64,000 bases of DNA, from the NCBI GenBank assembly GCA_017452895.1, contig JAFTLE010000001.1, forward strand, positions 17,428 to 81,427, in the 5' to 3' direction. The stretch is from Clostridia bacterium (GTDB lineage Bacteria; Bacillota; Clostridia; Oscillospirales; CAG-272). Numbering within the stretch: position 1 is the first letter of the stretch; every line of letters starts with the position of its first letter. A program made the position numbers and the translations under genes. This document shows, one piece after another, positions 1 through 13,329 of this stretch. Below the pieces are notes generated by a model. The model saw only the letters and a program-made list of their open reading frames with translations. It did no database searches and was not told the origin of the DNA.

Positions 1-41
1 ATATAGAAGGTGATCCTTCAAAAATTCCGTGATCCTCATGC

Positions 42-659
42 TTACTCCACAGCTAGATTTTTATAATATCCGACGATCGCCGTTACCGATTTGGTCGGCG
101 TCATCAAAAGGCTTTCATTCAGCGTTACACCGATATGCCGCGCAGGGTCGAGCAGGGCGAACAGATCGCTCTGTACCGAAAGCGGCAGATCGCCGTAGCC
201 CGCGCTAAAGCGCGAACGCAAAAGACAGCACGCCTTCGCTTTCTCCTGCTCCATCTGTGCAACGAAGGCGTCGCAAAGACTCTCGATGCGCTCGGCACCG
301 ATGGCTTGGAAGAAAAGCGCCTTGGTCGGCGAGAGGCTTGTGTAGCGCAAAATCAGGCGGTCGACCGCAATGCCGACGGTAGCGGCAAAGAGGATCGCCC
401 CGTGGCATCCCGAAAGAGTGCGGGAAAGGTCGTTCGATTTCACCGTCAGCCCGCCAAGCGAAACGGTGCCGCCGTCGGCGGATGCATCGGTCTCGCAGTA
501 GCAGACCTTGTAGACCAGTTTCCCCTTGATCTCATCAAGGCACTCGCGCAAAAGCGGCAGAAGCTCAGCACCGTCGCCGCGTACACCCGCGTACCGCAGG
601 ATCTCTTTTTCGTCAATCGGCGGCGCTTCGTAGCTTTTCGTGCAAACAAAGCTTGTCAT
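42..659 (-). CDS. Methionine synthase (MetH) activation-domain-like protein, stand-alone
   Basis: 205-aa ORF whose ATG overlaps the metF stop (ATGA). Size and composition recall the stand-alone B12-dependent methionine synthase reactivation domain often found beside metF/metH in Clostridia. Confidence 0.55.
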   Translation of the reverse strand: MTSFVCTKSYEAPPIDEKEILRYAGVRGDGAELLPLLRECLDEIKGKLVYKVCYCETDASADGGTVSLGGLTVKSNDLSRTLSGCHGAILFAATVGIAVDRLILRYTSLSPTKALFFQAIGAERIESLCDAFVAQMEQEKAKACCLLRSRFSAGYGDLPLSVQSDLFALLDPARHIGVTLNESLLMTPTKSVTAIVGYYKNLAVE

Positions 660-1534
660 TTTCCGAGAATGTCCGACAGATTTCTTTGAATTGCCGCCGC
701 AACGTCGGGCTTATTCATCGAATAGACGTGTACATTTTTGATGCCGTTGGCATACAGATCAATGATCTGATCGGTCGCGTAGACGATGCCCGCCTGCTTC
801 ATTGCGGCAGGGGTCGTCCCGAATTTGTCAACGAGCGCCTTGAAGCGTTGGGGCATAAAGGAGCCCGAGAGCTTGATCGCGCGCTCGACCTGATTGCCGT
901 TGGTGATCGGCATCACGCCGGGGATGATCGGTACGGTGATCCCCGCCTCGCGTATTTTGTAAAGAAAATTGTACAAAAGGTTGTTGTCAAAAAACATCTG
1001 CGTGGTCAGAAAGGAGCAACCCGCGTCCACCTTTTCCTTCAGGTGGCGGATATCCTCCTTCTGGTTTTCGCTCTCGGGATGCACCTCGGGATAGCAAGCA
1101 CCGCCGATGCAAAGTGCGGGGTCCGCCGCGTGCAGCTCGCGCACCAGCTCAACGGCGTGCAGATAATCCCAACCGCTGCGGTCGGCGTTTTCAAGCTCCT
1201 TCGGAATATCGCCGCGCAGCGCCATCACGTTCTCGATCCCTGCCGCCTTGATGTCGGCAATGCGCGCCCCCACGGTTTCGCGCGTGGAGGAAACGCAGGT
1301 CAGGTGTGCCAGCGTGGGTACGCCGTAGCGTTCCTTGATGTTTTTCGCAATGTCAAGCGTATATCGGCTGGTGCCACCGCCTGCACCGTAGGTCACGCTC
1401 ATAAACGAGGGGCGCAGACGGGCGATCTGTTCGGTCGCCTCCTTCACGCTCTCAAAGGCGGTGTCGTTCTTCGGCGGAAATACCTCGAAGGACAGGGAAA
1501 CCCCCTCTCCCTCAAACAGCTTCGTCAACTTCAT
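656..1534 (-). CDS. metF: 5,10-methylenetetrahydrofolate reductase
   Basis: 292 aa. N-terminus ..SFEVFPPK.. and ..SVTYGAGGGT.., ..LAHLTC.. are classic MTHFR motifs. Confidence 0.9.
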   Translation of the reverse strand: MKLTKLFEGEGVSLSFEVFPPKNDTAFESVKEATEQIARLRPSFMSVTYGAGGGTSRYTLDIAKNIKERYGVPTLAHLTCVSSTRETVGARIADIKAAGIENVMALRGDIPKELENADRSGWDYLHAVELVRELHAADPALCIGGACYPEVHPESENQKEDIRHLKEKVDAGCSFLTTQMFFDNNLLYNFLYKIREAGITVPIIPGVMPITNGNQVERAIKLSGSFMPQRFKALVDKFGTTPAAMKQAGIVYATDQIIDLYANGIKNVHVYSMNKPDVAAAIQRNLSDILGK

Positions 1535-2064
1535 AACTCTTCCTCTTTTCCGATTTTTTTAACGGGAAGCTCAAAAATTACCGTTTCAAGGATAACAGGA
1601 TCACCGTTTTCATCCTTTCGGAGAGAAAGCGGTATCCGTTCCTTTTCGCAAAAGCCAAACCGATTCAAAAGCCTTTTGGACGGCAGATTCTCGCTTGCGC
1701 TCATCGCGGTGAAGCGCAAAACGGGCTCGGTCCTTGCCACATATACGAGCGCCGCCGCAAGTGCCTCGCCCGCGTAGCCACAACCCTGATGCTCTGAATG
1801 GATCAGATAGCTGACGTCGTACGCCCCATCCTCCTCGCAAAAGCAAATATAGCCGATCATTTTGCGACCCAGCAGTACGGCGAAAAAGAGATGCGTGTCA
1901 ACGAATTGCCGCGTGAGACTTCTGATGCCGCGCCGATCCTTCGGCCACGGAAGATCGTACGCCGCGTAGGGTGATGCGCTGAAATCGGCATCCAGCCGTA
2001 AAAGGCGGCGCCAATCACCCATTTTCAGTCGGCGGAGCGATAGCCGTTCGGTTCTGATGCGCAT
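1531..2064 (-). CDS. GNAT family N-acetyltransferase
   Basis: Trimmed to MRIRTERLSLRRL.. (177 aa). It has the RimJ/RimL-like TERL.LR start and a Q/HxGxGYA acetyl-CoA motif (HQGCGYAGEA). The longer 248-aa ORF N-terminus is Arg/Cys-rich junk. Confidence 0.8.
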   Translation of the reverse strand: MRIRTERLSLRRLKMGDWRRLLRLDADFSASPYAAYDLPWPKDRRGIRSLTRQFVDTHLFFAVLLGRKMIGYICFCEEDGAYDVSYLIHSEHQGCGYAGEALAAALVYVARTEPVLRFTAMSASENLPSKRLLNRFGFCEKERIPLSLRKDENGDPVILETVIFELPVKKIGKEEEL

Positions 2065-2540
2065 CACGCCCCGAGCTCCTCGGAGCAGATCGGAACGTAA
2101 TGCACATTGGCAACGCAGTCGGTGTGGAACCACTGCGCAAAGGTAAAGCTCTGCGCGGGCAGAGCGAAGGGCTTGACGGTGAGGGTGTATGTAAGCTCCT
2201 CGATCTTGTCGCCCTCGGTAACCGTGATCGCAATCGGGTAAACACCCGCCGCAAGCGTCAGGTAGTAATCGTCGCACCAGCCCTCGCCGGGATATGCGGA
2301 CAGCTCCGACGGCACGTAGCCAACGCGCGAAAGCGTAATATATTCCGACAGCGCGGAGTCGACCGTTACTTCATAGTCACACTGTGAATAATGCGTGCTG
2401 ACCATACGGCGCATTGCAAGCTGAAAACAGGTCTCCTGTCCTGCCGCCGACACAGTCTCCTTCTCCTCTCCGCCGTAGTTGCGGTCGGGAAAGACCTTCG
2501 CAAGTGAGGATAGCATTTTTATTTCAAGATCGGGATTCAT
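2064..2540 (-). pseudogene. Remnant of a DUF4091 (GH123-like) protein gene: N-terminal region only
   Basis: 158 aa. It starts like DUF4091 proteins (..KMLSSLAKVFPD..) and ends ..FAQWFHTDCVANVHYVPICSEE.., where full-length homologs (~500+ aa) continue into the catalytic domain. The stop overlaps the GNAT start (TGATG). Confidence 0.45.
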
Positions 2541-2620
2541 TTTTATTTCCTTACATTGAATGTATTAATCTTAATATAACACAAACCGAAGTAAAATGCA
2601 AGGTTTTTTCGTTTTTTCCT

Positions 2621-2663
2621 CCCCAAAACAAAACACCGCTTGTAAACAAAGGTTTACAAGCGG
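2621..2663 (-). terminator. Rho-independent terminator downstream of the cotJC 3' segment
   Basis: 12-bp perfect stem ccgcttgtaaac/gtttacaagcgg (2636..2663), followed on the minus strand by tgttttgtttt. Confidence 0.7.
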
Positions 2664-2674
2664 CTTTGCGGAGT

Positions 2675-2881
2675 TTATTTTAAGGGACAGACCTTGTCGT
2701 AAGCGGGATTGCAGGCGTAGAAATTTTTGGAGTTCAGCTTGTCGGTCGTCATACGCAACGCCTCGCCGAAGCGTTGGTAGTGTACGACCTCGCGCTGGCG
2801 CAGAAACTTCAGCACGTCACGCACGTCGGGGTCGTCAACGAGGCGCAAAAGGTTGTCGTAGGTCGTGCGCGCCTTTTGCTC
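2675..2881 (-). pseudogene. cotJC: cotJC 3' segment (C-terminal 68 codons of the split spore coat Mn-catalase-family gene)
   Basis: Translation EQKARTTYDNLLRLVDDPDVRDVLKFLRQREVVHYQRFGEAL.. aligns with B. subtilis CotJC ..EEKARATYQWLIDISDDPDLNDSLRFLREREIVH... There is no RBS or native start; the track ORF begins at an in-frame GTG inside element DNA. Confidence 0.85.
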
Positions 2882-2915
2882 TGTTACTATCACGTATTCG
2901 CAACAAAATTGAGTC

Positions 2916-2956
2916 TTGCAAAAGTGCGAAAATCCTTATTTACAAGGCGTTTTGCA
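2916..2956 (+). repeat. Left copy of a ~42-bp imperfect direct repeat found inside both element ends
   Basis: ttgcaaaagtgcgaaaatccttatttacaaggcgttttgca versus 10510..10551 ttgccaaagtgtaaaaatccttattgcacaagaggtttcgca. About 34 of 42 aligned columns are identical by hand count, in the same orientation. Confidence 0.6.
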
Positions 2957-3080
2957 GTTCATACCGAGAAAAAATTTCGGGTACAAGGCGCACCGCAGAA
3001 AGTAAGACGAAGGCGTAGTAATCTACGTCGAGCCGCTTTCAAGGAGCAACGCCGTAAACGAAAGAATTTTCGACGGTATG

Positions 3081-4640
3081 TCAGAAATTCCAATGAATTT
3101 CGATGGGCACGTTTCGCGTCCCCGGAATGCGCTTTCCGACCATGATTTTGTCGATCAAAATTTCTACCATTTCCCGTGTCAAATGCTCTACCTTGACGTA
3201 TTTTTCGATCAGCTCACGGCGGTTGTCTCCCACGGCAATTTTGACGTCGATCTCGGCCATTTGCCTTTGGCATTCGAGCACCTGCGCTTCAAGGCGTTCC
3301 TTTTGCGCGGTGAAGTCCTTCGACAATTCAATGAAATCCGCTTCGCAAATCAGCCCCTTGACCTTGTCAAGATAGAGGTCGCGCACACCCTTGGAAAATT
3401 GATTGATCTTGCCTTGATAGGTGGCAATTTCGGCTTCAATTTCTTGCTTTTGCGCCAAGAGATCGGTGTTAAATTGCACTTTGCGCTCCAGCTCATCCAT
3501 ATCAAGATACTCGGCATTGAGTCGCCTCAGCTCTGCAATGACCATCCATTTAAGCCTATCCACCGAGATAAACGCACCCTCGCAGGCTCCCTTGGCGTAG
3601 TGTCGGCTGGGGCACCCGAGAAAGTGTCTGCCGCCCGATTTTGACGAGCGCATGACGTATCCGCAGGACGCGCACCGTACCTTCTTGGCAAATAGCCCGA
3701 TGGTACCGACCTTAAGCGGCTTGGCTCGCTCGGCAATCATCTTCTGCACTCTGTCCCACAAAGCGCGGTCAATAATCGGCTCATGGGTGCCCTCTACCCG
3801 AAACCATTGTTCTTGGGGTCGTGGGCGGTTGATACCGCTCTTGTACGAGATGCTTCCATACTTGCCTTGCACCAGATTGCCGATATAGGTCTCGTTTTTC
3901 AGCATATCCGAGATTGCAAAGTACTTCCACAGCGTGCTATTCTTGCTTGGTGGCAGACTAAAGCGTAGCCCCTGCATCCGCTTGTACTCGGTGGGATTGG
4001 GGATTCCTCGGTCGTTGAGCATTCGTGCGATTGCCGTCTTGCCGTAGCCCTGCGAAAAGAGGGTAAATACCTCTCGCACCACGGCAGCGGCTTCCTCGTC
4101 AATGATCAAGTGACCTTTGAGGTCGGGATCCTTCTTGTAGCCGTACAGCGCAAACGAGCCGATATGAAAGCCGTTTTTGCGGCGGCTGTCAAGGGCGGAT
4201 TTGATGCTGTCAGACATATCCTCCAGATACCACTCGTTGACAAGTCCATTGATCTGACGGCTTTTTTTGTTGCCCTTGTTGGCGGTATCGGCGTTGTCCA
4301 CAATGCTGACAAAGCGAATGCCCCAGATGGGAAACAGACCGTGTATGTATCGCTCTACCAATTCAAGCTCACGGGTGAAACGCGATTGCGTTTTACACAA
4401 AATAATATCAAATTTTCTCGCCTGCGCGTCGGCAAGCAGGCGTTTGAACTCGGGGCGATTGCGGTCCGAGCCCGCGTAATCGTCGTCGCTGTAAATGCCG
4501 TAAAGCTCCCAGCCCATGCGTTCGGCGTAGTCGCGGAGCATCGCCTTTTGATTCTGAATACTGCCCGAATCGTCTGTTGCGTTCTGCTTGTTTTTGTCCT
4601 CCTCGGACAGTCTGCAATAGATTGCTGCTTTGTCTCTCAT
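3081..4640 (-). CDS. Large serine recombinase (resolvase/invertase N-domain + recombinase/zinc-ribbon + DUF4368-like coiled-coil C-terminus)
   Basis: Trimmed to MRDKAAIYCRLSEEDK.. (the catalytic-Ser motif YxRxS of serine recombinases). It has ..CKTQSRFTR.., a CxxC..C..C zinc ribbon (CASCGYVM..GCPSRH..C) and a tail ..IPIEIHWNF typical of DUF4368 recombinases. A GAGG RBS lies upstream of this ATG. Confidence 0.9.
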   Translation of the reverse strand: MRDKAAIYCRLSEEDKNKQNATDDSGSIQNQKAMLRDYAERMGWELYGIYSDDDYAGSDRNRPEFKRLLADAQARKFDIILCKTQSRFTRELELVERYIHGLFPIWGIRFVSIVDNADTANKGNKKSRQINGLVNEWYLEDMSDSIKSALDSRRKNGFHIGSFALYGYKKDPDLKGHLIIDEEAAAVVREVFTLFSQGYGKTAIARMLNDRGIPNPTEYKRMQGLRFSLPPSKNSTLWKYFAISDMLKNETYIGNLVQGKYGSISYKSGINRPRPQEQWFRVEGTHEPIIDRALWDRVQKMIAERAKPLKVGTIGLFAKKVRCASCGYVMRSSKSGGRHFLGCPSRHYAKGACEGAFISVDRLKWMVIAELRRLNAEYLDMDELERKVQFNTDLLAQKQEIEAEIATYQGKINQFSKGVRDLYLDKVKGLICEADFIELSKDFTAQKERLEAQVLECQRQMAEIDVKIAVGDNRRELIEKYVKVEHLTREMVEILIDKIMVGKRIPGTRNVPIEIHWNF

Positions 4641-4659
4641 ACACGGCCGCCTCTGTTTT

Positions 4660-4821
4660 TCATTGACCCGAAGAAAGATTTGCACTTTTTCTGCGTTCCA
4701 ACGCGGTGATCAATTCTATCCATATATGTGTGTAATCCTCCTTCGTCAAAGCTCCGTTTTTGAAAACACCGGTACAGCCTTCTTCTTTTCTATCATTGTT
4801 CTCGCCTTTTTCTTTCGCCAT
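4660..4821 (-). CDS. Small hypothetical protein (53 aa) directly upstream of the recombinase; candidate accessory/directionality factor
   Basis: Hand-translated: MAKEKGENNDRKEEGCTGVFKNGALTKEDYTHIWIELITALERRKSANLSSGQ*. An AGGTAGGA RBS lies 5 nt upstream. The stop is 19 nt before the recombinase ATG. The ORF is below the ORF-track size cutoff. Confidence 0.4.
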   Translation of the reverse strand: MAKEKGENNDRKEEGCTGVFKNGALTKEDYTHIWIELITALERRKSANLSSGQ

Positions 4822-4848
4822 AGCATTCCTACCTTCGTTTTTGAAATA

Positions 4849-4878
4849 ATTATATGAAAATCATCAAGTCCGTTATGA
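4849..4878 (-). promoter_or_regulatory. Candidate sigma-E-like (mother-cell) promoter for the small ORF-recombinase operon
   Basis: Minus strand reads TCATAAC-N15-CATATAAT, versus the recalled sigma-E consensus ZHATAXX-N14-CATACAHT (6/7 and 7/8 matches). Confidence 0.35.
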
Positions 4879-4940
4879 GCTTTTTGCTCCTTCACCTATA
4901 AATACGCTCGGGGGCTGCAAAATTTTGATTTTTTAAACAT

Positions 4941-4990
4941 TATAAAAACGCACTCTGTCGGCGGTGAAATTCCGCTTTCAAAGTGCGTTT
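4941..4990 (-). terminator. Rho-independent terminator after the FAD/Rieske oxidoreductase gene
   Basis: Minus strand: aaacgcact..(inner gcgg/ccgc hairpin)..agtgcgttttta. Confidence 0.55.
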
Positions 4991-4995
4991 GGGGC

Positions 4996-6294
4996 TTACA
5001 TCTTCTTGTCATCGGTGGCGGGGTTGTTGATGAGCTTGCCCTCTTCGGTGAAGCGCGAGCCGTGACAGGGGCAATCCCAAGTGTGCTCGGCATTGTTGTA
5101 TTTGAGGGCACAGCCGAGATGAGGGCAACGGGGCGCGGTGGGGGTGAGAATCCCTACTACCGAGTCAAAGGCGTTGACGGCAAGCTGTGGGCGCAAAACG
5201 GTGCGCGAAGGATCGAAAACGGCGGCGTAGAGGTTTGACTTGCCTTGCACAAGGTCGCAGAGAATGTCGGCGGAGACCATGGCGTTGGTCATACCCCATT
5301 TGTTAAAGCCGGTTGCCACGAACACATTAGAAGTGGATTTTGCGTACTGCCCGATATAGGGAATATCGTCGAGCGTCATACAGTCCTGCGTTGCCCATTT
5401 GCCCACGATCTCGGCGTTTTTGTAGTGCTTATGGGCGAAGTCTTCAAGCTCCTGCCAACAGCCGCCCCTCTTACCCGTGCGGTGTCCGCCGCCGCCGAGG
5501 AGCAGAAGATCGCCGTAGCTTCGGAAGGATAGCCCCGTGTCCGATTCATCCACATACATTCCGTTCACGTTCTGTGCACCTTTCAATGCTATGACATAGG
5601 AACGGTGCTGATAAAGTTTGAGAAAGTACAAGCCGTGCTTGTTCAGCATTGGAAAATGGGTGGCAATAATCAGCTTTTTGAAGGTGATCTCTCCGTGATT
5701 TGTTTTTGCCTTGTGCGGCATCAGCTCGACGACCTTTGTATGCTCATAAATGGGTAAATCTTTGGCGATCGCATATAGGAACTTCAACGGATGAAGCTGT
5801 GCTTGATCCTCGATACACACCGCGCCTGCGACCGGAAAGGTCAGCTCATGAGCGTCCGAAAAATCAGCTTTCACGCCGATTCGATTCAGTGCGGCAACCT
5901 CTTTTTCAATCTTCTTACGATCACTGAGAGAATAGACGTAGTTATCCCGCATTTCATAGTCGCAATCTATATCCCTGCAAAGTCGGGCGTATTCCTTGCC
6001 CGCTTTTTTCTGCGCCTCCGCGTAAAGCCGCGCCTTGTCCTCGCCGAAGCGTTTTATCATCTTATCGTAAATCAATCCGTGCCCGAGCGTAATCTTTGCC
6101 GTGGTGTTTTTCGTAATGCCGGCGCAGATCTCGTCTGCCTCCACCAACATACAATCCACACCGGCGTTTTTCAGCTTATAAGCGCATAAAATCCCCGCAA
6201 TCCCGCCGCCGACAATCAAAATATCGGTCTTTTTATTCCTACCAAGCGCATCAAAATGCGGCTTATCCGCCGTTTTTAACCATATTGAGTCCAT
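4996..6294 (-). CDS. FAD-dependent oxidoreductase with C-terminal Rieske [2Fe-2S] domain
   Basis: Trimmed to MDSIWLK.. (GGAGG RBS). It has the dinucleotide-binding motif DILIVGGGIAGILCA and the Rieske motif CPHLGC..(17)..CPCHGS at the C-terminus. Confidence 0.8.
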   Translation of the reverse strand: MDSIWLKTADKPHFDALGRNKKTDILIVGGGIAGILCAYKLKNAGVDCMLVEADEICAGITKNTTAKITLGHGLIYDKMIKRFGEDKARLYAEAQKKAGKEYARLCRDIDCDYEMRDNYVYSLSDRKKIEKEVAALNRIGVKADFSDAHELTFPVAGAVCIEDQAQLHPLKFLYAIAKDLPIYEHTKVVELMPHKAKTNHGEITFKKLIIATHFPMLNKHGLYFLKLYQHRSYVIALKGAQNVNGMYVDESDTGLSFRSYGDLLLLGGGGHRTGKRGGCWQELEDFAHKHYKNAEIVGKWATQDCMTLDDIPYIGQYAKSTSNVFVATGFNKWGMTNAMVSADILCDLVQGKSNLYAAVFDPSRTVLRPQLAVNAFDSVVGILTPTAPRCPHLGCALKYNNAEHTWDCPCHGSRFTEEGKLINNPATDDKKM

Positions 6295-6472
6295 ATTTGT
6301 CCTCCAAATCTTAATAGGATTAGTTTTTGCGGATTCACACCTAAACATACCGTTTATTAAAAAAATCGGCTGGTATTTTAATTCGTCGTTTCATATAATT
6401 TTATACCTTCGGCAATATATTTTCCCTCATCTTGGGAAACAATAACGGTGAATACAAAAATCGGAGGTATCT

Positions 6473-7135
6473 ATGTTCAAACACGAAAAAATGCTATTTC
6501 ATCCCGTAGAGGTCGAAAGAGCAAATCCGCAGTATGCCGTTTTGCTTCAGGAGCAGCTTGGCGGCGGGAACGGCGAGCTCAAGGCGGCAATGCAGTATAT
6601 GTCGCAGAGCTTCCGCATTAAAGATCCCGAAATAAAGGATTTGTTCCTCGATATAGCTGCCGAGGAGCTGGGGCATATGGAAATGGTGGCACAGACCATC
6701 AACCTGCTCAACGGTCACGATGTCGATGCAACCAAGGTACAGGCGGGCGAGGTGCAGACCCACGTGCTGCTTGGTCTGAATCCCGGACTGATCAATTCCT
6801 CTGGGTACTCTTGGACGGCGGATTACGTGACCGTCACGGGTGACCTGTGTGCCGATCTGCTCTCCAATATCGCGTCCGAGCAGAGAGCCAAGGTGGTTTA
6901 CGAATATCTCTACCGTCAGATTGAGGACAAGAAGGTCAGAGAGACCATTGATTTTCTTCTCAACCGTGAGGAAGCGCACAATCAGATGTTCCGTGACGCC
7001 TTCAACAAGGTGCAGGAAACGGGATCAAACCGTGATTTCGGTACGACCAAGGCAGCAAAGATGTATTTTTCCTTGTCAAATCCCGGACCGAATACGTTTG
7101 CAACGGGCGAGACACATGCACCGTCCTTTAAGTAA
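6473..7135 (+). CDS. Manganese catalase family protein (complete, 220 aa)
   Basis: ..GGGNGELKAAMQYMSQ.., ..AAEELGHMEMV.., ..NIASEQRAKVVYEYL.., ..REEAHNQMF.. are the four-helix di-Mn ligand motifs. A GGAGG RBS is present. Confidence 0.85.
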   Translation: MFKHEKMLFHPVEVERANPQYAVLLQEQLGGGNGELKAAMQYMSQSFRIKDPEIKDLFLDIAAEELGHMEMVAQTINLLNGHDVDATKVQAGEVQTHVLLGLNPGLINSSGYSWTADYVTVTGDLCADLLSNIASEQRAKVVYEYLYRQIEDKKVRETIDFLLNREEAHNQMFRDAFNKVQETGSNRDFGTTKAAKMYFSLSNPGPNTFATGETHAPSFK

Positions 7136-7142
7136 GCTTGAG

Positions 7143-7175
7143 AAAAATCACCGTCAATTATTTGGCGGTGATTTT
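7143..7175 (+). terminator. Rho-independent terminator after the Mn catalase gene
   Basis: aaatcaccg-N12-cggtgatttt. Confidence 0.55.
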
Positions 7176-7229
7176 ACATATTGCTGCTTGGGTATTCTTT
7201 GAATGAAAAATTAAAGTAACGAGGTATTT

Positions 7230-8180
7230 ATGTGTACAGCTGTTTCCTATAGAAGTAACGCTTTCTATTTCGGCAGAAATTTGGATTTGGATCGCGGATA
7301 CGGGGGAGGTGTCGTTATTACTCCGCGCCGTTATGAATTTAAAATGCGTTGTGAGAAGCCGATCGGGTCGCACTATGCGATGATCGGTATGGCTACCGTT
7401 GTTGATGATTTTCCTCTGTACTATGAGGCTACGAACGAGTGGGGACTTAGTATGGCTGGCTTGAACTTTCCCGAAAACGCCGTATACTGCGACTTTACGG
7501 AGGGGAAAGACAACATTACGCCTTTTGAGTTGATTCCTTGGATCTTATCTCAATGCGCTTACATCGATGAAGCAAAATCACTTCTTGGAAAAATCAATTT
7601 GATCAATATCAACTTTAGTGAGCAGCTTCCGCTGTCGCCGTTGCATTGGATGCTCAGCGATAAAAAACGAAGTATCGTATTAGAACCTTTGAGTGACGGG
7701 CTTAAAATATACGACGATCCGTTTGAGGTTTTGACCAACAATCCTCCATTTGAATTTCATAAAACGAACGCGAGCCATTATATGGGACTTGGCATCGGTC
7801 ACGCAACCTCTCAATTCAGAGAAAGTATACCTATGAAAAATTATAGTTTGGGCATGGGGGCTTTGGGCTTGCCGGGGGACTTTTCAAGCGCGTCACGTTT
7901 TGTACGGGCGCTTTTTGTGAAAGAAAACTCGGTATCGGAGCATAATGAAGCATCAAACGTGAATCAGTTTTTCCATATTCTGAATTCTGTTGCCATGCCG
8001 AAGGGGTGCGTCTTAGCTACTGATGGCTTTGAATATACGCGCTACAGCAGCTGCTGCAACGCGGACAGGGGGATTTATTATTACACGACCTATAATAACC
8101 TTCACATAACCGCGGTAAATATGCACGATGTTGACCTTGATAAATCATCCTTATACACCTACGGTGTCAAAGGATTATAA
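7230..8180 (+). CDS. Choloylglycine hydrolase family (bile salt hydrolase / linear amide C-N hydrolase)
   Basis: N-terminal MCTAV.. (Cys2 Ntn nucleophile), ..FGRNLD.., ..LTNNPPF.., ..GLPGDFSSASRF.., ..FHILNSVAMPKG... It is colinear with the recalled C. perfringens CBAH. Confidence 0.85.
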   Translation: MCTAVSYRSNAFYFGRNLDLDRGYGGGVVITPRRYEFKMRCEKPIGSHYAMIGMATVVDDFPLYYEATNEWGLSMAGLNFPENAVYCDFTEGKDNITPFELIPWILSQCAYIDEAKSLLGKINLININFSEQLPLSPLHWMLSDKKRSIVLEPLSDGLKIYDDPFEVLTNNPPFEFHKTNASHYMGLGIGHATSQFRESIPMKNYSLGMGALGLPGDFSSASRFVRALFVKENSVSEHNEASNVNQFFHILNSVAMPKGCVLATDGFEYTRYSSCCNADRGIYYYTTYNNLHITAVNMHDVDLDKSSLYTYGVKGL

Positions 8181-8201
8181 TAACTTCGTAAAAAACAAGT
8201 A

Positions 8202-8230
8202 TTGACAGAAAGCGAAAAATATGGTACAAT
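8202..8230 (+). promoter_or_regulatory. Sigma-A-type promoter for ktrB-ktrA
   Basis: TTGACA-N17-TACAAT. Confidence 0.5.
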
Positions 8231-8310
8231 TATAGAAGCAAATAATGATAAAAAGGAACCAGCTGACTGCAGAGGACGTTGATTCCTTTATGCTTTTTAG
8301 AGGAAAACTT

Positions 8311-9672
8311 ATGGTTAGGAAAAAGAAATTTACACTCTCAACCACGCAGATCATATTGCTCAGCTTTCTTGTGACTATTCTCTTGGGAAGCGTGCTGTTA
8401 GCATTGCCGATCAGTTCCGCCGACGGTGGAGCTGTGCCGTATCTCGATGCGCTGTTTACAGCAACTACCTCCACCTGCGTGACAGGACTTGTTACGCTTC
8501 CCACTGTCTCTGCTTGGAGCGTGTTCGGGCAGATCGTCATTCTATTATTGATACAGATCGGCGGTCTTGGTATCATCACCATTATGTCGGGGCTGATGCT
8601 TCTTTTGAACAGGAAAATGGGCATCGGCGACCGATTGCTCATTCAGGACGCTTTCAATCTAAATACGATGTCGGGACTTGCAAAATTCGTTAAAAACGTA
8701 TTGTTCGGCACGATGATTATCGAAGGAATTGGTGCTGTCCTGTATATGTTTGTGTTTGTTCCCGAATTTGGCGCGAAGGGCATCTGGATATCGGTATTCA
8801 ATTCGGTTTCCGCTTTCTGTAATGCCGGCATTGATATTATTGCGGAAAACAGCCTTTGCAATTACGCAACAAATTCATTGATAAACATCGTCACCTCGGC
8901 GCTCATCGTTCTCGGCGGTCTTGGTTATATCGTATGGTGGGATGTAATTCGTGTTGTTAAAAGCAGATCGTCAAGGAACAGAAAAATATTCAGGCATTTA
9001 ACCTTGCACTCGAAGATTGCAATTACTGTTACCGTAGGACTTATTCTTTTCGGTGCGATTCTGATATTTATTTTTGAATATTCTAATCCGTTGACCATTG
9101 GAGAGATGTCCTTGCTCGATAAGATCCAAGTATCTCTCTTCCAATCGGTCACCACGAGAACCGCAGGCTTTGCAACCGTTCCGCAAGAAAATATGACGAA
9201 CGCCTCTGCCGCCGTATCTGTTATTTTAATGCTGATAGGCGGTTCACCTGTGGGAACGGCAGGCGGTATGAAAACAGTTACGATTGCCGTCCTTGTTTGC
9301 TCTGCATTCGCTACGATAAAGAATAAGAACGGTGCTACACTATTCGGTCGCCGTATCTCTGAAGAATCAATAAAAAAGGCGGTTGCGGTTGTTGTAATGT
9401 TCCTTGCGATTTGCGCTACGTCTACCTTACTCTTGATGGCAACGAGTGACGTATCTGCCATCGATGCGGTATATGAAACGGTCAGCGCAACGGCAACCGT
9501 AGGTCTTTCGAGAAACCTAACCGCAACGCTTAACACATTTGGAAAGTTAATTATCATCGTAACGATGTATTTCGGCAGAGTAGGCCCCATTTCGCTTGCG
9601 GTGGCACTTGGCAGTAAGAACGAAAGTCAGAACGTAATTTCCGAGCCGACGGAAGATATCAGTATAGGATAA
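8311..9672 (+). CDS. ktrB: TrkH/KtrB family potassium uptake membrane subunit
   Basis: Trimmed to MVRKKKFTLSTTQ.. (GAGGAAA RBS). It is polytopic, with repeated ..T.TGL../..TAGF../..GGSPVGTAGGMK.. selectivity-filter-like motifs. Confidence 0.85.
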   Translation: MVRKKKFTLSTTQIILLSFLVTILLGSVLLALPISSADGGAVPYLDALFTATTSTCVTGLVTLPTVSAWSVFGQIVILLLIQIGGLGIITIMSGLMLLLNRKMGIGDRLLIQDAFNLNTMSGLAKFVKNVLFGTMIIEGIGAVLYMFVFVPEFGAKGIWISVFNSVSAFCNAGIDIIAENSLCNYATNSLINIVTSALIVLGGLGYIVWWDVIRVVKSRSSRNRKIFRHLTLHSKIAITVTVGLILFGAILIFIFEYSNPLTIGEMSLLDKIQVSLFQSVTTRTAGFATVPQENMTNASAAVSVILMLIGGSPVGTAGGMKTVTIAVLVCSAFATIKNKNGATLFGRRISEESIKKAVAVVVMFLAICATSTLLLMATSDVSAIDAVYETVSATATVGLSRNLTATLNTFGKLIIIVTMYFGRVGPISLAVALGSKNESQNVISEPTEDISIG

Positions 9673-9683
9673 GGAGAAGAACA

Positions 9684-10334
9684 ATGAAATCAAAGAAAAC
9701 ATATGCAGTCTTTGGACTTGGAAGGTACGGCATAGCCGTGGCAAAAGAGCTTGTAGAGTGTGGTATGGAGGTTATTGCCGTGGATACCGAACAAAGAATC
9801 GTTAACGATGCGTCGGCGTATCTACCCGTGTGCAAATGCGCCGACGTTACCGATGCGGAGGTTATCTCCCGTCTTGGCATCGGAAATATTGATACGGTCA
9901 TAGTATGTATGGCAAGTAATTTGGAAGCGAGCGTTATGGCGGTCGCACTTTGCAAAGAGGCGGGAGTTAAGACCGTTATCGCAAAATGTGCCAACGAGAT
10001 GCATCAAAAGATACTGTTTCGTGTCGGTGCGGATCAAGTCGTATTTCCCGAAAACGAATCCGGCATCCGTCTTGCCAAAAACCTCTTAAGCTCCGGCTTT
10101 ATTGATATGATCTCTCTGTCGAAGGATGTATCAATGGTCGAGATCGACGTAAAGGACGAGTGGTGCGGCCAAAACTTGATCGAATTGAATCTTCGCAAAA
10201 AATACGGCTTCAATATCGTCGCTATCAAGAAAGGCGAGAATGTCAACATAAACATTAATCCTGAGCAAGTGCTTGATGCCCAAACCACGCTGATCGTTAT
10301 TGCCAATACGGCAAAGCTTGGTAGGTTAAAATAA
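9684..10334 (+). CDS. ktrA: TrkA/KtrA family K+ uptake regulatory subunit (RCK: TrkA-N + TrkA-C)
   Basis: 216 aa. It has the Rossmann motif AVFGLGRYG and a size typical of KtrA. It follows ktrB by 11 nt. Confidence 0.85.
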   Translation: MKSKKTYAVFGLGRYGIAVAKELVECGMEVIAVDTEQRIVNDASAYLPVCKCADVTDAEVISRLGIGNIDTVIVCMASNLEASVMAVALCKEAGVKTVIAKCANEMHQKILFRVGADQVVFPENESGIRLAKNLLSSGFIDMISLSKDVSMVEIDVKDEWCGQNLIELNLRKKYGFNIVAIKKGENVNININPEQVLDAQTTLIVIANTAKLGRLK

Positions 10335-10348
10335 TTCCATATAAAAAC

Positions 10349-10386
10349 GCCGTCGAGGGAGTGAAAAACCTTGACGGCATTTTTTG
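10349..10386 (+). terminator. Rho-independent terminator after ktrA
   Basis: gccgtcgagg-N10-ccttgacggc followed by attttttg. Confidence 0.7.
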
Positions 10387-10509
10387 ATGACGGAAAAATT
10401 CATTGAGAAAACAGCTTGTCCTTATCATTTTTAATAAATTAAGTTGATTTTTTGCTAAAATGTTTGTTGTTGCTCTTATGTGATAGCAGGTATGCAAATT
10501 TTAAGCGTA

Positions 10510-10551
10510 TTGCCAAAGTGTAAAAATCCTTATTGCACAAGAGGTTTCGCA
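10510..10551 (+). repeat. Right copy of the ~42-bp imperfect direct repeat inside the element ends
   Basis: See 2916..2956. This copy ends ~39 nt from the right junction, and the left copy starts ~34 nt from the left junction. Confidence 0.6.
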
Positions 10552-10557
10552 ATATTT

Positions 10558-10995
10558 TTATAAAGATTGCTCTTGCGTGGTTGCATCATCGGCGGCGAGG
10601 TCCTCGTTTAGGTCGGTGATTGGATCGCCCTTGACGGCGATCGAGGCGGTCGTGAACGGGAAGCCTGCGGCGGCGGTGGGATAAATGCCCGTGGTGTGAT
10701 CGGTGAAGTAGGCGTCGAAGCCGCCCTCCCTGATCTGCTCGGGTGTCAGATCGCGCGTAAGCTGATAAAGAATCGCGGCGATCAGCTCCTGATGCGCCAT
10801 CTCCTCGGTACCGATATCGGTCAGCATGCCGATGACCTTGCCGTCGGGCATCGAATAGCGCTGATTGAGATAGCGCGTCGATGCGCCCAGGTCGCCGTCG
10901 GGGCCGCCGAGCTGGGACACGATGATCTTCGCATACGCGGCGTTCGGGGTCGCGATCTTAACGGGGTATTGCAGTTTTTTCTCATAGATCCACAT
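10558..10995 (-). pseudogene. cotJC: cotJC 5' segment (135 native codons, 10591..10995, then 10 element-encoded codons and a stop)
   Basis: MWIYEKKLQYPVKI..LGGPDGDLGAS.RYLNQRY..LTDIGTEEMAHQE..GDPITDLNEDLAA matches CotJC (B. subtilis MWVYEKKLQYPVKV..YGGADGELAAALRYLNQRY..LTDIGTEEFAHLE..GDPIADLYEDIAA). Similarity stops after LAA; the tail is DDATTQEQSL*. Confidence 0.9.
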
Positions 10996-10998
10996 AGG

Positions 10999-11283
10999 TC
11001 AGTCCTCCTTCTTCTGCCAGGGCCATGGGGTGTCGCCCCAATCCCAGCTGCCGTTTTTGCCGGCGCCCTTCTGCGTGAGGGGACCGTAGCGCTCCTCATA
11101 GGTCTCGGTCAGCTCGGACAGGCGATCGCGGCACTCATCGAAGTAGCGGAGTGCCGTGCGGTTGTCGGGATACGCGTTCAAATACATTGCCGTTTCAAGG
11201 CATGCGAAGGAGAGCGCGCGAATCTCACGGAGCAGGGTCGCTTCGTTGCTGCCCTGCTGTTGGTTCATATTATTCATAATCAA
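10999..11283 (-). CDS. cotJB: Spore coat protein CotJB
   Basis: 94 aa, with ..YLNAYPDN..AL.YF.. and the C-terminal ..W.WGDTPWPWQ signature of CotJB. Confidence 0.85.
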   Translation of the reverse strand: MIMNNMNQQQGSNEATLLREIRALSFACLETAMYLNAYPDNRTALRYFDECRDRLSELTETYEERYGPLTQKGAGKNGSWDWGDTPWPWQKKED

Positions 11284-11500
11284 AGCCTCCCGTGGTCAGG
11301 ATGGGAAGATCGAGCGCCTTGAAGATTGTGCCGTGGGAGAGTCCCTCGGCGGGGCTGTAAAGCCCCTCGAAGACCTGCTTTGGCGTGTAGACCATCGCAA
11401 GACTCGGCATCGGCACGGGAAGCGCGCCGCTATGCGGCGTGCAGGGCGTGCCGTTATTCTGATTGCATCCGCCGCAGGGCGGAGTTTGATTCATATTCAT
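11270..11500 (-). CDS. cotJA: Spore coat associated protein CotJA
   Basis: Trimmed to MNMNQTPP.. (76 aa, AGGAGGA RBS). ..LAMVYTPKQ.FEGLYSPAEGLSHGTIF..LDLP.. is the CotJA core. It overlaps the cotJB start. Confidence 0.75.
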   Translation of the reverse strand: MNMNQTPPCGGCNQNNGTPCTPHSGALPVPMPSLAMVYTPKQVFEGLYSPAEGLSHGTIFKALDLPILTTGGFDYE

Positions 11501-11527
11501 AGCATCCTCCTTTCGGGTTTCCAATTT

Positions 11528-11570
11528 TATCATATGTCGGGCTTTTATGCCTGTGAATATCCGCCAAAAA
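11528..11570 (-). promoter_or_regulatory. Candidate mother-cell (sigma-E/K family) promoter of cotJABC
   Basis: Minus strand reads ..ATATTCAC-aggcataaaagcccga-CATATGATA. The -10 fits CATAnnnTA, with AC 16 nt upstream. Confidence 0.3.
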
Positions 11571-11635
11571 TGGCGCGCTTTCCTAAAAAGACACCGCTTT
11601 TTCCAAGCCCTGCCGCGCCAACCGTATTTTGTGGG

Positions 11636-11664
11636 TTGCGACCTCCCTCTCCCTATGCTACAAT
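11636..11664 (+). promoter_or_regulatory. Candidate sigma-A-type promoter for the SleB-family gene
   Basis: TTGCGA-N17-TACAAT. Confidence 0.3.
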
Positions 11665-11731
11665 CAGGATAGAGTGGTAAGGATACACCGATAGCTAAAA
11701 CCCACTTAAATTCACGAAAGGAGAAAATGCT

Positions 11732-12634
11732 ATGCATATCACGAAAACAAAGAGTCATAGGCTCGGGGCGCTGATGCTTGCCTTGCTTCTGTTGCTTCCA
11801 TTCGCCGCCGCACTTTCTCTGCGTGCTGATGCGAAAAGCAGTATCAGCTACATACCGAGCAGTGTGAAGGACAAAACAGTTGGTGCATACGAGGAGATCA
11901 AAGTCACCGCGAAGGACGGAAGCACGCTGAAGGGACGCCTGATTAACGGCACGACCTTCGTTCCCCTGCGTGCCTTTTACGACGCGCACGCTGATGCTAC
12001 GATCAGCTATCACGCGGCAACGCGCACGGCAACCGTAACGGCTGACGGGCTGTCGCTGACGGCGACCGACGGCGCACGCTATCTGATCGCAAACGGCCGT
12101 TATCTTTACACCGATACGCCTCTTGTGATCCTGTCGGACGGCAGCTTCTACGCGCCGATCCGCCTTCTGGCGAAGACGCTCTCACTCACGGTCGGATGGG
12201 ATAACGCCACGCGCTCGGCATCGCTCACGGGCAAGGTGACCCCGCTTGAGCACGGCAGCACCTACTACGATGCTGACGATCTCTATTGGCTCTCCCGCAT
12301 TATTTCGGCAGAAAGCCGCGGCGAGCCGCTGATCGGGCAGATCGCAGTCGGCAACGTGGTGCAGAACCGCGTAGCGAGCAACCAATTCCCGAATACCGTG
12401 TACGGCGTCATCTTTGATTTCAAGCACGGCACGCAGTTTACCCCTGCGGCAACGGGTGCGATCTACAAGAGTCCCTACTATCTATCGGTGATCGCGGCAA
12501 AGATCTGTCTTGAGGGCTATACCGTGTCCGACGCGATCCTCTTTTTCTACGAGCCGACGGCATCGACGACAAACTGGATCGACCGCGCGCGGCCGTTTGC
12601 CTTCCGCATCGGCGCACACCGTTTTTATTACTGA
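11732..12634 (+). CDS. Cell wall hydrolase, SleB/CwlJ family (signal peptide + copper-amine-oxidase-like stalk domain + Hydrolase_2 domain)
   Basis: 300 aa, with ..LYWLSRIISAESRGEPL.GQIAVGNVV.NRV.S..FPNTVYGVI.. (SleB catalytic domain) and an N-terminal hydrophobic leader. Confidence 0.8.
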   Translation: MHITKTKSHRLGALMLALLLLLPFAAALSLRADAKSSISYIPSSVKDKTVGAYEEIKVTAKDGSTLKGRLINGTTFVPLRAFYDAHADATISYHAATRTATVTADGLSLTATDGARYLIANGRYLYTDTPLVILSDGSFYAPIRLLAKTLSLTVGWDNATRSASLTGKVTPLEHGSTYYDADDLYWLSRIISAESRGEPLIGQIAVGNVVQNRVASNQFPNTVYGVIFDFKHGTQFTPAATGAIYKSPYYLSVIAAKICLEGYTVSDAILFFYEPTASTTNWIDRARPFAFRIGAHRFYY

Positions 12635-12721
12635 TCGCTAAAAAAAGCGGCAACCCCCTTGAATTTTCCCACGGTTTGCTGTATACTAATGGTGAAAAAA
12701 GAACAAAAGGAGTTTTTTACC

Positions 12722-13273
12722 ATGGTATACAAAATTGATATCGCGGGACTGACAAGGGAGCTGCCGCTTTGTCCGCTTTCGGGCGAGCTGAACATTGCCG
12801 CCTTCGTGATGTTCGGCGACGTTGAGCTGACCGAGCACTGCGCGAAAAAGCTTGCCGAGATCGCACCCCCGCACGACGTGATGATCACGGCAGAGTCGAA
12901 GGGCATTCCGCTGGTCTATGCAATGGCTCATCATATGGGTGTAAACCGCTACCTTCTGGCACGCAAGTCGCCGAAGCTCTATATGCGCGACGTGAAGAAG
13001 TACGAGGTACAGTCAATCACCACGAGTGCGCGGCAGACGCTCTATCTTGACGGTTATGACGCCGAGTATATGAAGGGCAAGCGCGTACTGATCGTGGACG
13101 ACGTGATCAGCACGGGCGCATCGCTTGAGGCGCTTGAGCATCTCGTTACCGCATCGGGCGGTACGGTTGTCGGCAAGATGGCAGTTCTCGCCGAGGGTGA
13201 TGCAATCAACCGCGCGGACGTCATCGCACTCGCACCGCTCCCCCTCTTTGATAAGGACGGAAAAGCGCTCTGA
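12722..13273 (+). CDS. Phosphoribosyltransferase family protein (adenine/xanthine PRTase-like)
   Basis: Trimmed to MVYKIDIAG.. (AAAGGAG RBS). It has the PRPP-binding motif VLIVDDVISTGAS. Confidence 0.75.
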   Translation: MVYKIDIAGLTRELPLCPLSGELNIAAFVMFGDVELTEHCAKKLAEIAPPHDVMITAESKGIPLVYAMAHHMGVNRYLLARKSPKLYMRDVKKYEVQSITTSARQTLYLDGYDAEYMKGKRVLIVDDVISTGASLEALEHLVTASGGTVVGKMAVLAEGDAINRADVIALAPLPLFDKDGKAL

Positions 13274-13284
13274 TATCAGTAAAT

Positions 13285-13323
13285 AAAAAAGCCTTCCCAA
13301 ATTCTGTTTGGGAAGGCTTTTTG
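13285..13323. terminator. Bidirectional rho-independent terminator between convergent genes
   Basis: aaaaaagccttccca-N9-tgggaaggctttttg. Confidence 0.75.
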
Positions 13324-13329
13324 TATACT

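Follow-up and report, generated by a model that had tools for sequence, protein, structure and literature searches.

The subject of this report is a 64,000-nucleotide stretch of contig JAFTLE010000001.1 from an uncultured gut Clostridia bacterium (hereafter the window, to which all positions refer), in which the spore coat gene cotJC was found to be split at codon 136 by an island of 7,709 bp. The boundaries of the split are exact, the recombinase encoded by the island is specific for this site, the island ends have the structure of attP arms, and a promoter motif and a small open reading frame (ORF) are conserved upstream of the recombinase gene. With moderate confidence, we read the insert as a cotJC-specific integrative island that is moved by a TnpX/TndX-like recombinase and excised in the mother cell to rebuild cotJC; it is probably a member of the class of elements that are cut out during sporulation to rebuild a gene.

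The cotJ operon and the element that interrupts it were delimited as follows:

11270..11500, minus strand: cotJA
10999..11283, minus strand: cotJB (Pfam CotJB, 2e-26)
10591..10995, minus strand: cotJC 5' fragment, codons 1-135 (Pfam Mn_catalase positions 1-151)
2882..10590, minus strand: intervening element, 7,709 bp including one GA (from the empty-site comparison and the junction table)
2675..2881, minus strand: cotJC 3' fragment, from codon 136 (Glu) to the stop, beginning EQKARTTY (Mn_catalase positions 147-197)
2664..2635, minus strand: intrinsic terminator hairpin of the cotJ operon, a 13-pair stem followed by a T run

The called ORF of the 5' fragment is 10558..10995(-); after ..DLNEDLAA it contains 10 element-encoded codons (DDATTQEQSL) and then a stop. 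On the Mn_catalase model (PF05067), the fragments match in colinear order and without redundancy. Joined in silico they gave a protein of 203 aa, which matched the model from position 1 to 197 (E=1e-50) and was 98% identical over 100% of its length to the intact protein P0001. This protein is encoded in the syntenic relative L001 (GCA_045532985.1, ~93% nucleotide identity), where cotJA-cotJB-cotJC is unbroken. The DNA alignment of the window with L001 jumps from 10589 to 2883 with a 4-bp overlap, as expected of an empty site. The bounds of the island were taken from the empty sites of L001 and L002; the L001 site agrees base for base with the in silico excision, which restores an intact cotJC ORF. 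The codon at the junction is the Glu of AAEQKAR, which was aligned to AAEAGAR of solved Mn catalases and corresponds to a metal-ligand glutamate. The GC content is 40-48% across much of the insert, compared with 53-61% in the flanks.

Most of these features had been claimed in the original prediction, namely cotJA and cotJB, an N-terminal ORF running into 10 unrelated codons, a distant 3' part with its own terminator, a joined CotJC of 203 aa and the recovery of a metal-ligand glutamate, and the coordinates, Pfam matches and hairpin found here agree with it. The comparison with uninterrupted relatives, which it had proposed as a check, was carried out and gave the empty site of L001. The size of ~7.7 kb that it gave for the insert was borne out at 7,709 bp, and our analysis adds to its contents a 53-aa ORF and an Mn-catalase paralog. 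The skin-like architecture which it described was also recovered: a mother-cell coat gene is divided by an element whose edge carries a large serine recombinase gene, and precise excision would give back the ORF.

The same split allele was present in six metagenome assemblies, in which an identical 72-aa ORF of the 3' fragment adjoins the recombinase gene; samples with this allele are ERZ28654190, ERZ28653727, ERZ28594731, ERZ27318236, ERZ28654056 and ERZ28018778. Four intact proteins cluster with the 3' fragment at >=90% identity, and two of them (P0001 and P0242) are ~98% identical to the joined form; empty and occupied cotJC alleles are thus both present among close relatives. Neither a second cotJC copy nor another serine recombinase was found within the 64-kb window, and an exact look-up of the 145-aa N-fragment ORF returned no gene on record among the indexed contigs. 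As the source is uncultured and many of the related contigs are short, with ends close to the junctions, an assembly artefact could be suspected, in which an island contig was wrongly joined to cotJC when the metagenome-assembled genome (MAG) was built. However, the same junction was recovered in the six independent assemblies of this allele, and the same codon is interrupted in ~100 further loci, among them complete genomes of isolates (e.g. Roseburia faecis JCM 17581), so that an artefact is hardly conceivable.

It could also be supposed that cotJC is a decaying pseudogene and the insertion an old, immobile scar, whose fragments have no future function. The GH123 gene downstream of cotJC is truncated compared with L001, and some local decay is therefore present. 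However, both cotJC fragments are ORFs without interruption and 98% identical to a functional-looking ortholog, and no frameshifts or stops were seen in the fragments of carrier strains. The recombinase, the small ORF and the att arms are likewise intact and conserved, and the recombinase family is clearly active across species. We consider the pseudogene explanation very unlikely.

The junctions, arms and subterminal repeats of the island are:

10589..10590, minus strand: GA core of the attL-type junction (cotJC 5' side)
2880..2881, minus strand: GA core of the attR-type junction, first two bases of Glu codon 136
2882..2904, minus strand: attP-derived arm P, GTTGCGAATACGTGATAGTAACA, adjoining the recombinase 3' end
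10566..10588, minus strand: attP-derived arm P', TGATGCAACCACGCAAGAGCAAT
2913..2940, no strand assigned: subterminal direct repeat copy 1, 28 nt, ~30 nt inside the element end
10507..10534, no strand assigned: second copy of this direct repeat, with 86% identity to the first
attB in the relative: ..CTCGCCGCA-GA-GCAAAAGG..
attL in the window: ..CTCGCCGCC-GA-TGATGCAACC..
attR in the window: ..GATAGTAACA-GA-GCAAAAGG..
Synthetic attB junction (joined cotJC), in silico: ..GACCTCGCCGCCGAGCAAAAGGCG..
Synthetic attP junction (circle), in silico: ..GTGATAGTAACAGATGATGCAACC..

The comparison of attB, attL and attR places the exchange at the GA dinucleotide, which forms the first two bases of codon 136, and GA was common to all junctions that were examined by comparison. 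The arms of the window form an imperfect palindrome, giving an attP of ~46 bp with a GA core; arm P recurs in 15 related loci, and most members of the clade have near-perfect inverted-repeat arms, e.g. GTTGTTCTTATATGATTGCAGCA-GA-TGGTGCAATCATATAAGAACAAC. The subterminal repeats are kept at both ends in relatives with recombinases 90-96% identical. They contain CCTTGT..AAGG and then a T run in the cotJC sense, and might serve as small terminators insulating the att sites or be bound by an accessory protein.

The end of the island next to the cotJC 3' fragment carries the recombination module, which consists of three parts:

3081..4640, minus strand: large serine recombinase, 519 aa, with Resolvase, Recombinase, Zn_ribbon_recom and DUF4368 domains
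4660..4821, minus strand: small ORF, 53 aa, between the oxidoreductase gene and the recombinase gene, candidate accessory or directionality factor
4849..4876, minus strand: sigma-E-type promoter-like motif ATAACGGACTTGATGATTTTCATATAAT, made up of an ATA -35, 17 nt and a CATATAAT -10, 27 nt upstream of the small ORF

With its four recombinase domains, the protein encoded at 3081..4640 is the large serine recombinase that had been predicted there. The nearest characterised recombinases are TnpX and TndX. The best match in the PDB was the catalytic domain of TnpX (2mhc, 4e-15), and TndX aligned to residues 2-519 at 30% identity, whereas SprA (YokA) was a distant match only, with E ~1e-8 in the PDB. 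The predicted likeness to the layout of the SpoIVCA and SprA elements was thus retained for the gene arrangement, while the recombinase itself is closer to TnpX/TndX than to SprA.

A protein search returned thousands of relatives of the recombinase, the best 120 of which were 73-95% identical. Scanning one genome per species by means of an alignment of these relatives gave at least 565 confirmed relatives, from which the best 80 loci were kept, and a scan of IMG/VR contributed 44 further recombinase loci. The integration site was then surveyed in 114 loci with a full-length recombinase >=60% identical. A cotJC fragment broken at codon 136 was located <=450 nt from the recombinase stop in 101 of them; four were too short to judge, and the other nine were different cases, among them tandem or secondary insertions and one unintegrated form. 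According to the names in the source records, the carriers belong to Oscillospiraceae, Lachnospiraceae and other groups, and include Roseburia faecis JCM 17581, Blautia difficilis, Diplocloster, Laedolimicola, Lacrimispora, Anaerotignum, Flintibacter and Pseudoflavonifractor. Among the carriers that have been cultured are Anaerotignum lactatifermentans DSM 14214, Flintibacter muris DSM 110149, Pseudoflavonifractor sp. 524-17, Lacrimispora indolis SR3, Blautia difficilis M29 and the R. faecis strain. Two layouts were distinguished. The 3' end of the recombinase gene abuts the cotJC 3' fragment on the same strand in 60 loci, as in the window, and the recombinase gene converges on the cotJC 5' fragment in 41 loci. 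The arms are the same in both, and the layouts differ only in how the core is oriented with respect to the recombinase gene, as would follow if polarity in serine integrases is set by the dinucleotide alone.

Recombinases that are 95% identical adjoin CotJC fragments only 60-78% identical to that of the window, and the module therefore moves between species. The recombinase group is an actively spreading mobile family rather than one that has become domesticated and fixed. Among ten fully bounded islands, 5.8-11 kb in size, nothing was in common except the recombinase module; their cargo included MatE, a complete Cas9 gene, ADP-ribosylglycohydrolase together with Macro domains, and, in one of the ten, a MobA/MobL relaxase. 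The Cas9 gene (L017:3939-8036) encodes a protein of 1,365 aa with Cas9_REC and Cas9_PI domains and is carried by a cotJC island of ~11 kb. One relative from IMG/VR (L110, IMGVR_UViG_3300045988_153380, module at 9700-11640) is located on a phage-like contig of 107 kb with tail-fibre, virion-structural, dUTPase, NrdD and phage-lysozyme genes. Its recombinase gene is followed by an intact attP, and no cotJC is present. No isolated phage had a recombinase >60% identical, and a phage-origin reading comes from L110 only.

More complex arrangements were seen at some cotJC loci. In L006 (recombinase 306-1862, cotJC 3' fragment at ~7605), L105 and L009, the cotJC fragment lies several kb past the recombinase gene and is preceded by a different attP-type arm, which suggests tandem or nested elements at the same attB. 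In a group of Lachnospiraceae-type loci (L052, L055, L107 and L111, at ~11,860-12,200 each, and L086-L090, L103, L106 and L121), the cotJC 5' fragment covers residues ~62-136 only, and directly upstream of it is the C-terminus of a different serine-recombinase-like ORF (e.g. ..VENVFSLEIQYI*). In these loci cotJC appears to be split again near codon 62, in the first metal-ligand helix, and thus to lie in three pieces.

The small ORF of the module is also conserved. An ORF of 44-61 aa was present directly upstream of the recombinase gene in 99 of 112 related loci, with the consensus ..CkSVFKsge.tttk..fT.kWIELIN.lEk.K.., and it is called as a gene in L127 and L128. The median pairwise dN/dS was 0.31 and every pair was below 1, which indicates purifying selection; no family in Pfam or PHROG was matched. 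Three loci with more distant recombinases (L113, L114 and L116, 49-62% identical) do not flank cotJC and have a similar small ORF upstream (e.g. ..CKNIFKSENIEIRKENFTKIIANLINN..), and the pairing of small ORF and recombinase therefore predates the cotJC specificity. Very small proteins are known to act as recombination directionality factors (RDF) in two sporulation elements, namely the 42-aa GirX of the gin element (PMC5595907) and the 72-aa CD1234 of the Clostridioides difficile skin element, which is regulated by sigma-E and SpoIIID (PMC5025042). By way of speculation, the small protein of the island might be such a factor.

The motif upstream of the small ORF has the consensus gtaATAgcGgACttGC.g.ttttCATAta.Tgta in about 100 related elements and is kept though the surrounding sequence varies between clades. 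ATA-N17-CATA was found where expected in 63 of 76 genome loci, compared with 2.5% of background 180-nt windows, and the stricter pattern ATA-N16-18-CATA[TC]A.T had only two occurrences on both strands of the whole window. The part conserved across clades is CATA and not TATAAT. It has been reported that sigma-E promoters combine an ATA -35 with a CATA-type -10, a consensus that comes from C. difficile, and that this type of -10, e.g. CATATTAT or CATATAAT, is common to the sigma-E and sigma-K promoters of C. difficile (PMC3789822). The motif is promoter-like and would fit sigma-E, on which the recombinase operon may thus depend. A sigma-K promoter was considered and rejected, as the invariant -35 is ATA and the conserved AC, 11-12 nt from CATA, is too close. 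A sigma-70 promoter is unlikely because several clades, which have CATACTTT, CATAGTCT or CATACGCT, lack TATAAT, and no TTGACA-like -35 is conserved. The spacer contains a block G.ACwwGC (GTACAAGC, GAACAAGC, GGACAGGC, GGACTTGC) with a weak resemblance to the SpoIIID site TAGGACAAGC (PMC11180830). In the phage-like L110 the -10 is TATATAGT and not CATATAGT; this single C-to-T change would make it look more sigma-70-like.

The interrupted gene itself is expected to be a sporulation gene expressed in the mother cell, based on the literature on cotJ operons. The cotJ operon of Bacillus subtilis is expressed under sigma-E. In C. difficile, cotJ-like operons were found to be sigma-K dependent (PMC3789822). 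The candidate promoter of the cotJ operon in the window is:

11529..11557, minus strand: AC-N16-CATATGAT, sigma-K-like, also readable as TTCACA-17-TATGAT, sigma-70-like

Since both patterns fit, this assignment is ambiguous and was not relied on.

From these elements the following course of events can be proposed. For integration, the recombinase would join the imperfectly palindromic attP to the attB inside cotJC, which lies in the conserved ..EDLAAEQKAR.. stretch at the metal-ligand codon, and the gene would thereby be split. Because cotJ is a mother-cell sporulation operon, the split would cost nothing in vegetative cells or in the forespore. In the mother cell, RNA polymerase with sigma-E would transcribe the operon of the small ORF and the recombinase gene from ATA-N17-CATA, possibly together with SpoIIID. 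Recombination of attL with attR would then free the 7,709-bp island as a circle and restore the 203-aa CotJC before coat assembly, while the island would stay in the chromosome of the spore itself. The phage-like and relaxase-bearing relatives suggest how the module may spread between species, and the island of the window would be a reduced cargo form with bile-salt hydrolase, Mn catalase, oxidoreductase and Trk genes. Excision during sporulation gains indirect support from the sigma-E-type motif conserved before the recombinase operon; excision specific to sporulation is plausible, and we infer that it would be confined to the mother cell.

Several points weigh against such programmed excision. 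The exact joined CotJC was absent from the protein collection searched by exact look-up, and the circular attP junctions of the window's element and of its commonest relatives had no match in metagenome and viral contigs, although the latter result should be taken as uninformative and not as negative, since excised circles are seldom found in assemblies. The intact state of the fragments is no proof of reconstitution, since the combination of 95% identical recombinases with 60-78% identical CotJC fragments shows that transfer is recent. TnpX and TndX are not known to require an RDF, or to be under developmental control, for either excision or integration. Some carrier taxa, e.g. Roseburia, sporulate poorly in culture. 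The promoter comparison is weak in that the loci are related by descent and the motif is uncalibrated on a known sigma-E gene of the genome; the spoIIIA operon of this genome was tried for calibration and had no clear intergenic promoter region. A sigma-70-like match (TTCACC-18-TATAAT, 4968..4939) is also located just upstream of the motif. Finally, B. subtilis mutants lacking CotJC in the coat have no apparent defect (PMC12122855), and C. difficile cotCB/cotD mutants lose catalase activity while the coat is normal (PMC11222575). Because CotJC-type mutants form coats without apparent defect, a simple, tolerated disruption is possible.

The island may accordingly be an ordinary site-specific mobile element comparable to a small mobilisable transposon, for which a conserved stretch of cotJC serves as the insertion point. 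It would inactivate a coat gene that is dispensable and be excised sporadically for transfer only, with no programmed rebuilding of the gene. We give this explanation limited credence, although much of the evidence is compatible with it. The recombinase is of the TnpX/TndX type and its family highly mobile between species, one relative has a MobA/MobL relaxase and another is a phage, and among close relatives some alleles are empty and others occupied. The metagenome and viral contigs yielded no excision junction, loss of CotJC-type proteins is tolerated (PMC12122855; PMC11222575), and the island bears an Mn catalase of its own. However, this explanation does not account for the conservation of a CATA-type, non-sigma-70 motif across divergent clades, nor for the second, unrelated serine-recombinase element at another codon of cotJC. 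Moreover, outside the regulated-gene-integrity class it is uncommon for integrative elements to insert in the middle of a gene without supplying a new 3' end (PMC7192596).

The remaining genes of the island, regarded as cargo, are:

4996..6348, minus strand: FAD-dependent oxidoreductase with a C-terminal Rieske domain
6473..7135, plus strand: Mn-catalase paralog, 220 aa, 30% identical to CotJC
7230..8180, plus strand: choloylglycine (bile-salt) hydrolase (NCBIfam bile_salt_hydro, 432 bits, cutoff 350)
8245..9672, plus strand: TrkH potassium transporter
9684..10334, plus strand: TrkA regulatory subunit

Domain scans of 2882..10590 revealed no phage structural, packaging or lysis genes, in line with what had been predicted for structural genes, and no relaxase or conjugation domain. 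The oxidoreductase, catalase and hydrolase genes recur in the islands of other hosts at 79-89% nucleotide identity; the Trk genes of the window are not shared with related elements at the DNA level. The Mn-catalase paralog is also found in the islands of L004, L009, L013, L018 and L019, and an Mn-catalase coat gene is here split by an island that itself bears a complete Mn-catalase paralog. This may be a coincidence, or the paralog may act against oxidative stress in vegetative cells.

Some further observations were made on RNA motifs and on the surroundings of cotJC. A search of window positions 1..14000 against Rfam gave nothing at E<=0.01, with both the pemK RNA motif and SQ2397 absent. The pemK motif (RF02913, above the gathering score) is present in four relatives (L023:8049-8142, L038:9584-9681, L057:9597-9658 and L066:9566-9665), ~340-430 nt upstream of the recombinase start and directly before the promoter and the small ORF; in L057 and L066, SQ2397 cis-regulatory RNA occurs ~1.3 kb further upstream of it. 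Downstream of cotJC, the window contains a 158-aa remnant (2064..2540, minus strand) whose counterpart in L001 is a GH123 glycoside hydrolase of 550 aa; ~1 kb of this gene is missing from the window compared with L001, and the version on contig L130 has 335 aa. Among the CotJC homologs, P0002 (267 aa, on a contig of 1,344 bp) has an internal tandem duplication of residues ~56-125, which may be real or an assembly chimera.

For annotation this means that what MAGs list as cotJC 'pseudogenes' and as 72-aa 'manganese catalase family proteins' (e.g. MBQ7376716.1) are halves of one interrupted gene. More broadly, the island could belong to a large family of gut Clostridia elements, uncharacterised so far, that are excised in the course of development, with a module of promoter, RDF and recombinase, a proposal to which we give slightly less than even credence. 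If it is true, the module would combine a promoter of the sigma-E/SpoIIID type, directionality factors of ~50 aa that form a new family, and a TnpX-like recombinase, and would carry a changing cargo (bile-salt hydrolase, catalase, transporters, a Cas9 locus) from one species to another without cost to the host, since cotJC would be rebuilt in the mother cell. Genes for gut fitness such as bile-salt hydrolase could thus spread on islands whose insertion is costless, and the doubly split cotJC of some Lachnospiraceae would need two programmed excisions for one coat protein. The known examples of programmed gene reconstitution in sporulating cells are few and come mostly from Bacilli and pathogenic clostridia. 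Family recombinases were found at >500 places in species-representative genomes, and the proposal would add a widespread case in uncultured and commensal gut Clostridia, the main spore-formers of the gut. The family also offers natural, highly site-specific serine integrases with defined attP/attB pairs, and a candidate new family of small directionality factors, both of interest for genome engineering.

In its architecture, the island resembles the skin, SPbeta, vfbin, vrin, gin and yin elements. By its recombinase, it resembles Tn4451 (TnpX) and Tn5397 (TndX) of clostridia, which are also small, carry cargo and have no phage genes. The crossover dinucleotide of Tn4451 and Tn5397 is GA. These transposons bear resistance genes and Mob or conjugation functions and use several or other insertion sites, whereas the island is strictly specific for codon 136 of cotJC, the copy in the window has no Mob gene, and its promoter is of the sporulation type. 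The skin element in sigK (SpoIVCA in B. subtilis, CD1231 with the RDF CD1234 in C. difficile) is like the island in that the cargo varies and the recombinase alone is shared. In B. subtilis, spoIVCA is controlled by sigma-E and SpoIIID. The RDF of the C. difficile element is likewise under mother-cell sigma-E and SpoIIID (PMC5025042; 10.1101/2022.02.25.481979). Unlike skin, the island targets a structural coat gene and not a regulator, and its recombinase is of the TnpX/TndX type with a DUF4368 tail, in a family that is highly mobile between species. SPbeta in spsM (SprA/SprB) shares with the island a spore-envelope gene as target and a large serine recombinase, and the phage-like L110 in the island's clade parallels the SPbeta series from phage to remnant (PMC4191935); however, SprA is a distant match only, and the island of the window has no phage genes.

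The original prediction had supposed that cotJC might be an undescribed target, which proved not to be the case. In 10.1101/2021.11.22.469490, cotJC is named, with reference to Abe et al. 2013, among the sporulation genes used for phage or transposon integration. In addition, a skin-like element of similar size (~8 kb) splits the same gene in Laceyella sacchari FBKL4.010 (10.1101/2022.02.25.481979). This element is mentioned there only in passing, with its recombinase family, att sites and regulation undescribed; its host belongs to Bacilli, and the split is near residue 77 and not at 136 as in the window. In the open-access literature, no description was found of the recombinase family, the codon-136 site, its att sites, the promoter, the small ORF or the breadth across gut Clostridia. 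What is new here is the cotJC codon-136 family across many hosts, its phage-like relative with an attP, the conserved small ORF and the promoter motif.

The gin element in gerE of Bacillus cereus ATCC 10987 (GirC and GirX) is a further non-phage element in a mother-cell sporulation gene; it combines a large serine recombinase with a very small unannotated partner, and its precise excision rebuilds the gene (PMC5595907). It differs from the island in its target gerE, its host among Bacilli, its size of 28.6 kb and its three recombinase genes, and GirX has no detectable relation to the small ORF of the island. Excision has been shown experimentally for gin and is inferred for the island. As a non-phage element with a tiny partner protein, gin is nevertheless the closest in kind to the island among the sporulation intervening elements.

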